The translations under genes and the position numbers were made by a program. Below the pieces are notes generated by a model, which saw nothing but the letters and a program-made list of their open reading frames with translations, was not told the DNA's origin and ran no database searches. Source: a virus. Taken from it: DNA of 12,347 nucleotides. The DNA lies in the UHGV virus genome UHGV-0179105; one strand, given 5' to 3'. Positions 4,463 to 5,434 of this stretch are shown here, piece by piece (the stretch's first letter is position 1; every line of letters starts with the position of its first letter).

Positions 4463-4518
4463 ACCGCACCTCCATCAAACATAAATTTTATGGATTTGTA
4501 ATCGTCGTAGTATCGCTG

Positions 4519-4974
4519 TTATTCCTTTCCTACAACTTTTACAATTTTATAAAAGTCGCCATATTCCTTAAAGATACGCTCCTGCTCTGCAGATGCGGCC
4601 TCAAAATCAAACCTTTTTGCAGCAGCAAGGCAGGTTGTATCTGCGCATTCGTCCAAAGAAATATAAAGTGGAACACGGGATGTGCGGATGCTTCGTTTGA
4701 GAACATATTGAGGTTCATCGATGCTAATACTGAATACAAACCATGTTGTTACATCATTTTCTGGCGTACTTTTTTCTAGTGTGATTTTGAATGTCCGATA
4801 GTCACTTTTCAGACAACAAAGGATACCGTTTTTAATGTTATTGTCGAATTCTTTGAAGGCGTCACGATCTGCTGCTTGAACGCACTCAAAATCACTATCA
4901 AATGGGCCAACCACAGTAATATCTGGATCAAAAGAATGTGTACACAAGTAATACCATTTACACATAAGTTTCAC
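4519..4974 (-). CDS. hypothetical protein, about 148-151 aa (start uncertain)
   Basis: Track ORF 4519..4974 begins at a GTG with only a weak AGAAAG 5 nt upstream; alternative ATG at 4965. Sits in an AT-rich block. Confidence 0.55.
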   Translation of the reverse strand: MKLMCKWYYLCTHSFDPDITVVGPFDSDFECVQAADRDAFKEFDNNIKNGILCCLKSDYRTFKITLEKSTPENDVTTWFVFSISIDEPQYVLKRSIRTSRVPLYISLDECADTTCLAAAKRFDFEAASAEQERIFKEYGDFYKIVKVVGKE

Positions 4975-5030
4975 ACCATCTTTCTCACAAAGATTAGTTC
5001 AAAATTCTTCATGCCGTCATCATACAAATC

Positions 5031-5426
5031 TTAATTGTAGAAATCTCTTGTAATGCTCTCACGCCATCCGTCATCAATACAACCTTCGTTTGCACTTTCA
5101 ATAAAGTAGTTGGCAATCGTTTCATCGTCTCCATTTTCAAAGGCACTCTGAATGCGATCTTCAATTTCATCGGAAGACAGGCCATAATATTTAGAGCTAT
5201 TCTCAAAATATTCACGAATAAAATATTTGGCTTGTTCATTTTCATACTGTGCCTGTTTCTCTTGACGAATACCTTCATAGAGTTCGTCGATATGCTTAAT
5301 GACATAATATAAAGCTGCCGCATATCCATAAGAAAAATCAGCACTATGATTTTGCCCTAAAGATTTATATATTTTAATTTCCTTTTCGTTTTTTTTAGCG
5401 AGATCTTCCAAATCTTTCTTCGTCAT
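5031..5426 (-). CDS. hypothetical protein, 131 aa
   Basis: Track ORF 5031..5426; AAAGGA about 11 nt upstream of ATG 5426; AT-rich, K/E/Y-rich helical-looking sequence. Confidence 0.6.
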   Translation of the reverse strand: MTKKDLEDLAKKNEKEIKIYKSLGQNHSADFSYGYAAALYYVIKHIDELYEGIRQEKQAQYENEQAKYFIREYFENSSKYYGLSSDEIEDRIQSAFENGDDETIANYFIESANEGCIDDGWRESITRDFYN

Positions 5427-5434
5427 TGTTGTTT

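Follow-up and report, generated by a model that had tools for sequence, protein, structure and literature searches.

Do two neighboring AT-rich genes in a phage genome make up one acquired block, or do they owe their place to separate events? The question is raised by positions 4463–5434 of the window, as we call the whole 12,347-nt stretch of virus genome UHGV-0179105 analyzed here. An earlier note, made from the letters of the window, had described this interval as a later-acquired, moron-like cassette of two genes that stands out by its low G+C and by the 56-bp gaps around it. We found that the compositional anomaly coincides with horizontally exchanged DNA, in agreement with the mosaic acquisition proposed there, and that the two genes differ in distribution and breakpoints, which argues against a single two-gene cassette. 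The AT-rich stretch probably reflects two independent, recombination-driven events in a hyperplastic region of small genes.

Genomic Context and Relatives

In reverse orientation, the window has the identical sequence of the ENA metagenome contig ERZ1034818 NODE_385 (12,347 bp). All credible genes of the window lie on the minus strand and form a tight array of small ORFs, and the window is probably a slice of a co-directional small-gene region of early or accessory character. Matches to phage families were found for a 434-aa Bro-N/anti-repressor-like (Bro-N/Ant) protein (Pfam/PHROG), for a 210-aa GP88-like protein (1513–2145), and for genes hitting phrog_6186 and phrog_26364; a DUF5052 lipoprotein gene (2523–3152) encodes a signal peptide with a lipobox-like LSLCSC. 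Some relatives carry a 321-aa radical-SAM-like gene before the lipoprotein gene (12510–13475 in contig L001), which the window lacks. Searched by megablast, the window as a whole had no match among the INPHARED phages or the PLSDB plasmids, and no cultured phage or plasmid similar in DNA was found in these two collections; tblastn of the proteins of the two AT-rich genes, of 131 and 148 aa, against phages likewise gave no match. Membership of the relatives in IMG/VR and a few PHROG matches suggest that the element is an uncultured human-gut phage of ∼145 kb. As neither of the two protein families had a match in a scan of 185,579 species-representative bacterial and archaeal genomes (GTDB), we assign neither a host nor a prophage, and the strong GGAGG Shine–Dalgarno sites, judged by inspection, point to a Firmicutes-type host.

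The comparisons below draw on about 30 related contigs, mostly IMG/VR viral contigs of 100–150 kb together with contigs from human-gut metagenomes. Exact-protein look-ups gave the close relatives, the unrelated GP88-like gene served as an anchor that brought in 20 IMG/VR contigs, and a profile of the 131-aa family added 12 further metagenome loci. Two of the contigs (L030 and L047, both 147,942 bp) are possibly one, and such overlaps make the frequencies approximate. The GP88-like protein itself has only distant matches (31–37%), in marine and archaeal viruses, and is 97–100% identical in 16 of the 20 IMG/VR contigs (L020–L038). One of these, L020, has the GP88-like protein, yet contains no match to the window genes that lie between 1513 and 7917. 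The GP88-like gene is an unusually conserved island within a very plastic region.

Extent of the AT-Rich Trough

The dip in G+C was estimated by hand in the earlier note, and sliding-window computation bears it out. The G+C content of positions 4519–5426 is 36.3%, the mean of the window being 46.2% (908-nt windows, sd 4.1%); the former value is the global minimum and lies within the lowest 0.4% of window positions at this length. In 300-nt windows, 4351–5550 ranges over 33–40% G+C compared with 56–59% at 9451–10050. The latter segment, whose composition is strongly skewed, lies inside the 434-aa Bro-N gene, where it codes for a linker rich in T, P, Q, and A that connects the N-terminal Bro-N domain with the C-terminal part.

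Codon usage, which the earlier note had proposed as a check, shows the same pattern. GC3 is 0.29 in the 131-aa gene and 0.32 in the 148/151-aa gene, the length of the latter depending on its start codon, versus 0.34–0.66 in the other genes of the window and a regional GC3 of 0.51–0.53 ± 0.10; total G+C is 0.34 in the 131-aa and 0.38 in the 148-aa gene. Among the genes called in two longer relatives, 36 in one and 46 in the other, these two rank lowest in GC3 (z of about −2.3 and −2.0 for the lowest-ranked pair), and both differ in base composition from the flanking phage genes. The four lowest GC3 values of the 36 belong to the 78-, 131-, 151-, and 72-aa genes, which are consecutive, an arrangement with a chance probability of 33/C(36,4) = 5.6e-4. 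The trough is thus wider than the block marked earlier and extends over about 4244–5671, taking in the upstream 78-aa gene (5435..5671, minus; GC3 0.39) and the downstream 72-aa gene (4244..4462, minus; GC3 0.34). In the 131-aa gene, GC2 is low as well (0.28), mirroring the amino-acid content of the protein.

Alleles of the 131-aa Gene

The 131-aa gene (5031..5426, minus) is an AT-rich allele of a very divergent, predicted all-helical ORFan family that is conserved at this slot. A homologue occupies the same position in 17 of the 20 IMG/VR loci found through the GP88-like anchor, the remaining three sharing none of the upstream synteny, and also in the 12 metagenome loci. The homologues are 39–53% identical to the window protein (41–53% in the IMG/VR loci) and have an ordinary composition: G+C is 0.40–0.46 and GC3 0.42–0.51 in the IMG/VR loci, all 12 metagenome loci carry alleles of normal G+C, and the GC3 of normal alleles at the slot spans 0.42–0.58 overall. 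Synonymous sites are saturated between the window allele and the others (pS 0.77–0.88), compared with a pS of 0.05–0.35 in backbone genes of the same genome pairs, and DNA homology to L017 breaks at window positions 5401 and 5021, which bracket the gene. The homologues filling the slot in relatives, the saturated pS and the breaks at the gene edges together indicate that the 131-aa gene is an allelic replacement at a conserved slot and not an insertion.

The allele of the window consists of two halves, of codons about 1–48 and 49–131, that recombine independently. In L040, a window-type AT-rich N-half (GC3 0.23) is joined to a normal C-half (0.46), and L042 has the reverse combination, a normal N-half (0.52) with a C-half of the AT-rich window type (0.34). 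The 31 loci compared combine at least five types of N-half with a few types of C-half, the ends and a central DEL motif being conserved in the alignment.

A wholly AT-rich allele is present on two backgrounds that otherwise differ by ∼17% in DNA, those of the window and of contig L001. The two share a patch at 4991..5432 (no strand) with 1 mismatch in 442 nt (99.8% identity). Beside the patch, identity is ∼93% for ∼170 nt upstream and ∼530 nt downstream, beyond which the sequences are 82% identical or non-homologous, and the next 6.7 kb beyond the flanks are 82.5% identical. At a coarser scale, a single homology block of 96% identity (4462–5599) covers both genes. A single mismatch in 442 nt inside diverged flanks marks the patch as a recent single-gene transfer between diverged genomes.

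The AF2 model of the 131-aa protein is helical with a pLDDT of 72, rising to 89–95 in an N-terminal hairpin. Foldseek searches with this model found nothing specific in PDB, the ESCRT-III and Dps helical matches having E > 1, and the sole homologue was an uncharacterised “Siphoviridae sp.” protein. Comparisons with Pfam, PHROG, NCBIfam, PADLOC, and PDB gave no significant profile or fold match.

Presence and Absence of the 148-aa Gene

The second gene (4519..4965, minus) likely starts at the ATG at 4965, as in most homologues, and encodes 148 aa; a GTG start at 4974 would give 151 aa. We found it in 8 of 17 IMG/VR and 3 of 12 metagenome loci, that is, in 11 of 29 independently sampled relatives (∼38%), in every case as the next gene after the 131 homologue or after a 64-aa gene that sometimes intervenes. 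Two loci (L019 and L025) lack exactly the window segment 4521–5030. The copies are 79–91% identical and have a GC3 of 0.26–0.33 in every carrier. Their dN/dS of 0.3–0.7 indicates that the gene is coding and under moderate constraint. Comparison of the block among relatives thus gives a divided answer. The 148-aa gene appears inserted between genes that adjoin in relatives and, to judge from this distribution, is a dispensable accessory gene of the presence/absence type; neither the 131-aa gene nor the pair as a unit behaves in this way.

Residues 1–80 of the 148-aa protein form a domain in common with an uncharacterised family of mostly ∼80-aa proteins (YSFD..GPF..CW.AM..TTW), with matches down to E = 1e-9 in a search across 1.84 billion representatives. 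Members of this family sit in similar small-gene arrays. Distant homologues of the domain were seen in the small-gene arrays of L056 (1130–2577) and L059 (1–5780); one distant homologue adjoins a reverse transcriptase and a ThiF-like gene, and another adjoins type I-C cas7, cas5d, and csd1. A paralogue of ∼88 aa consisting of the N-domain only is encoded elsewhere in L022 (4945–5211; E = 4e-9), a genome without the 148-aa gene. Among the small neighboring “WY” proteins, the domain has weak matches to that of the 64-aa gene (E 0.08–0.8). The full protein had no match in Pfam, PHROG, NCBIfam, PADLOC, or PDB, and its AF2 model (pLDDT 47) was too poor for a structure search. An internal duplication suspected by eye was rejected (hhalign probability 2%).

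Spacers and Neighboring Genes

The earlier note had taken 56-bp spacers that flank and separate the two genes as a sign of their foreignness. Both 56-bp gaps exist if the GTG start is used, the inner one measuring 65 bp with the ATG at 4965. They do not, however, flank the block on both sides, as the gap upstream of the 131-aa gene (5427–5434) is only 8 bp. The inner spacer (4975..5030, minus), between the 131-aa and 148/151-aa genes, contains at 4975–5021 an in-frame homologue of the last 17 codons and the stop of the 64-aa gene (MHWYYVSYNW...), which separates the two genes in L028, L029, L032, L033, L036, L040, L045, and L055. The spacer is a deletion or recombination scar that kept the ribosome-binding region of the 148-aa gene, and it is found exactly in the genomes with the AT-rich C-half of the 131 gene (the window, L001, and L042). 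The outer spacer (4463..4518, minus; …ACGATACTACGA…ATCCATAAAATTTATGTTTGATGGAGGTG) is a conserved ∼50-nt leader terminating in GGAGGTG, the Shine–Dalgarno site of the next gene. It occurs in one copy per related genome, ahead of at least five different downstream genes, and, where the 148-aa gene is lacking, directly follows the 131 homologue. With one spacer a relic of a lost gene and the other present without the 148-aa gene, neither serves as a cassette border.

Neither spacer folds significantly better than shuffled sequences (z −0.9 for the inner spacer and +0.5 for the outer leader), Rfam had no match anywhere in the window, and no repeat family joining the intergenic spacers was found. 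That both spacers represent one repeat or PeSL-like element was considered and rejected, as they are unrelated, the leader is single-copy, and there is no fold.

The remaining architectural contrasts are weaker than described earlier. Spacing elsewhere in the window is mostly −4 to 32 bp, yet gaps of 136 and 204 bp exist. The Shine–Dalgarno sites of the two genes, at −5.7 and −5.1 kcal/mol, are marginally weak against −7.5 ± 2.8 for the others, but both lie within 1 sd and six other genes have sites as weak or weaker.

The flanking genes vary as well. The 78-aa gene exists in two deep allele types, with 94% or 45% identity in relatives, and its last 54 codons alone survive in L001 (9828–9989), L005, L040, and L042; its 5′ part is replaced by 128-, 72-, and 219-aa genes, another relic at a mosaic junction. 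The 72-aa gene is variably present, with other genes instead in L001, L029, and L036. Next to it, at 4088–4231 (minus), a 47-aa cysteine-rich ORF (…CHYCEYKGSACHNQC…), below the 50-aa ORF cut-off, fills an apparent 162-bp gap and is 84–94% conserved in most relatives.

Transcription Signals

In a sigma-70-type scan of 3600–6300 we counted 5 sites where 6.1 ± 2.4 were expected, and no site is convincingly placed in either spacer; as a scan for consensus sites, it could miss a non-canonical promoter. No terminator-like hairpin was found in 4463–4518 or 4975–5030, and promoter- and terminator-like sites are not in excess in or around the block. A match to the Bacteroides-type promoter (TAnnTTTG) in the leader was rejected by inspection, given the lack of a −33 TTTG and the strong GGAGG sites. 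The block shows neither a promoter nor a factor-independent terminator of its own, and a moron label fits it poorly.

The only composite of promoter and stem-loop that we saw lies far upstream of the block, in the 204-bp intergenic region 11698–11901 (minus). Two direct repeats of 41 nt (11701–11741 and 11763–11803; 80% identical) enclose a G+C hairpin with a T-run behind it, and a sigma-70-like TTGCAA-16-TAGAAT is found at 11821..11794. The region has the appearance of a tandem promoter/attenuator at the head of the entire minus-strand array. The 131-aa and 148-aa genes are most likely expressed by read-through from the upstream array.

Mosaicism of the Region and Competing Explanations

Over 551–10605, pS per gene is bimodal in comparisons with L001, L028, and L029, with values of 0.05–0.35 or 0.53–0.88. 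The alternation with deep divergence affects the 224-, 99-, 110-, 84-, 78-, 79-, 209-, and 170-aa genes, and the gene content from the 66-aa gene to the GP88-like gene is different in nearly every relative. An AT-rich allele is found at another slot too, in the 79-aa gene of L001 (G+C 0.35). From these comparisons, the surrounding region is a gene-by-gene mosaic of which the block is one instance and not an architectural exception, contrary to the discontinuity proposed in the earlier note; the block stands out only by how strongly its composition differs.

Starting from the observed composition, homology breakpoints, patterns of presence and absence, intragenic recombinants, and coding constraint, we propose that recombination at or near gene borders would swap deeply diverged alleles and add or remove small genes. 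In one event, an AT-rich 131 allele with two recombining halves may have entered the conserved slot, and at least two diverged backgrounds would have come to share it through the recent transfer of a patch of one gene. In the other, the 148-aa accessory gene and the junction upstream of it would have come or gone as one. The inner spacer is what remains of the 64-aa gene lost at that junction, and the outer spacer is the conserved leader of whichever gene follows. Composition and saturated synonymous divergence suggest that the AT-rich modules came from a relative or gene pool of lower G+C; no donor with a natively low-G+C genome was found. All copies of the 148-aa gene are AT-rich, and its composition could be an intrinsic property instead of a foreign mark. 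The AT-rich 131 module and the 148-aa gene occur together in 4 of 4 loci versus 9 of 27 other loci, the four not being independent samples, a pattern that would also fit one AT-rich source shared by both genes.

It is highly improbable that one moron-like cassette of the 131-aa and 148-aa genes came from an AT-rich donor and was inserted between the 78-aa and 72-aa genes, with the 56-bp gaps as its borders. Such an insertion would place the two most AT-rich genes of the region side by side, within one block of 96% homology to L001, and would put the 148-aa gene in all four loci with AT-rich 131 modules. It is at odds with the presence of a 131-family gene in the slot of nearly all relatives, with the upstream gap of only 8 bp, and with the 148-aa gene standing beside 131 alleles of normal G+C in 9 loci and being absent in 18. 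The breakpoints differ, too: those of the 131-aa gene fall at 5401/5021 and those of the 148-aa gene at 5030/4521, and the recent patch has its own at 5432/4991. Further, one spacer is a gene relic and the other occurs without the cassette, and no promoter or terminator belonging to a cassette was detected in the scans above. By the data on presence, absence, and breakpoints, an insertion of the pair as a unit is largely refuted. That the AT-richness is intrinsic, the genes being native to the lineage and the slot or the proteins favoring A/T-ending codons (through weak mRNA structure, expression level, or a composition rich in K, E, N, Y, and I), we consider rather unlikely. Normal 131 alleles, with a GC3 of 0.42–0.58, are the rule at the same slot, AT-richness travels with the allele module so that recombinants are AT-rich in one half only, and synonymous sites are saturated between the allele classes. 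These observations have to be set against the low GC3 of the 78-, 72-, and 148-aa genes in all relatives (0.26–0.42), the GC2 of the 131-aa gene, which reflects amino-acid content, and the short paralogue of the 148-aa N-domain within the lineage together with its weak similarity to the 64-aa gene.

It is possible, though doubtful, that the 131 alleles are not imports but an old balanced polymorphism under diversifying selection, as for a protein in an arms race whose N-terminal helical hairpin is hypervariable. The shuffling of at least five discrete N-half types with a few C-half types fits this, as do the confidently modeled hairpin (pLDDT 89–95) and the two deep allele classes of many neighboring genes, and the conserved ends and central DEL motif could serve as recombination anchors. 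Alone, such a polymorphism leaves the compositional shift of the window-type modules unexplained, and the saturation of pS prevents an estimate of dN/dS for the 131 alleles; it is compatible with two separate events and does not exclude them. A more specific proposal, which we regard as quite improbable, is that the 131 family is a two-module specificity protein, with a hypervariable N-terminal hairpin and a conserved C-terminal part, whose alleles, including a foreign AT-rich class, are swapped among co-circulating gut phages as gene or half-gene patches under diversifying selection, for example in anti-defence or superinfection exclusion, the 148-aa gene coming from the same lower-G+C pool. 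Under our preferred explanation of two independent events, both genes are predicted to encode early, dispensable proteins interacting with the host or with other phages, a role favored by context, small size, and the allele diversity of the 131 family.

Comparison with Known Systems

As an instance of ordinary phage mosaicism, the locus has little importance beyond its phage lineage. It is a well-resolved example of small accessory genes of a large uncultured gut phage being exchanged by the gene or half-gene, and it illustrates that a trough in G+C can sum independent events instead of marking a single insertion and that what looks like a spacer can be the remnant of a lost gene. The polymorphic helical 131-aa family and the “YSFD…GPF” N-domain of the 148-aa protein (∼80 aa) are candidates for screens of host interaction and anti-defence.

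The 148-aa gene resembles a moron in being present or absent between the same neighbors and in a composition unlike its surroundings. The resemblance does not extend to the block: the 131-aa gene is a replacement allele, the two genes are not one unit, no promoter or terminator of their own was detected, and the surrounding operon is a patchwork and not a conserved backbone. Hyperplastic regions of T4-type phages contain clusters of small, non-essential ORFan genes that vary among close relatives through insertion, deletion, and replacement at gene borders, and PeSLs are multi-copy motifs of promoter and stem-loop at the borders of modules (PMC2839356, PMC4122927). With its small, variable ORFan genes clustered between conserved ones, the locus is similar to the former. 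It is unlike PeSL cassettes, as the spacers are unrelated, single-copy, and unstructured, with no promoter or terminator signal found in them, and instead of a repeated motif at the borders of exchanged modules there is one leader per locus. The “ORFanage” of cyanophages is described as a region of small genes of unknown function that are readily gained and lost (PMC4503421). The packing of small genes and their easy gain and loss are alike, whereas the phages and hosts differ.

In the gene-boundary mosaicism of tailed phages, known from the modular theory and the work of Hendrix and colleagues, sharp transitions in similarity fall at gene ends or within a few nucleotides of them. The locus has such transitions too, alleles of very different depth standing side by side, and it adds a hotspot of crossovers inside the 131-aa gene as well as classes of alleles that contrast in composition. 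It is another example of gene-boundary mosaicism, in an uncultured gut phage lineage, and differs from the known cases in nothing essential.
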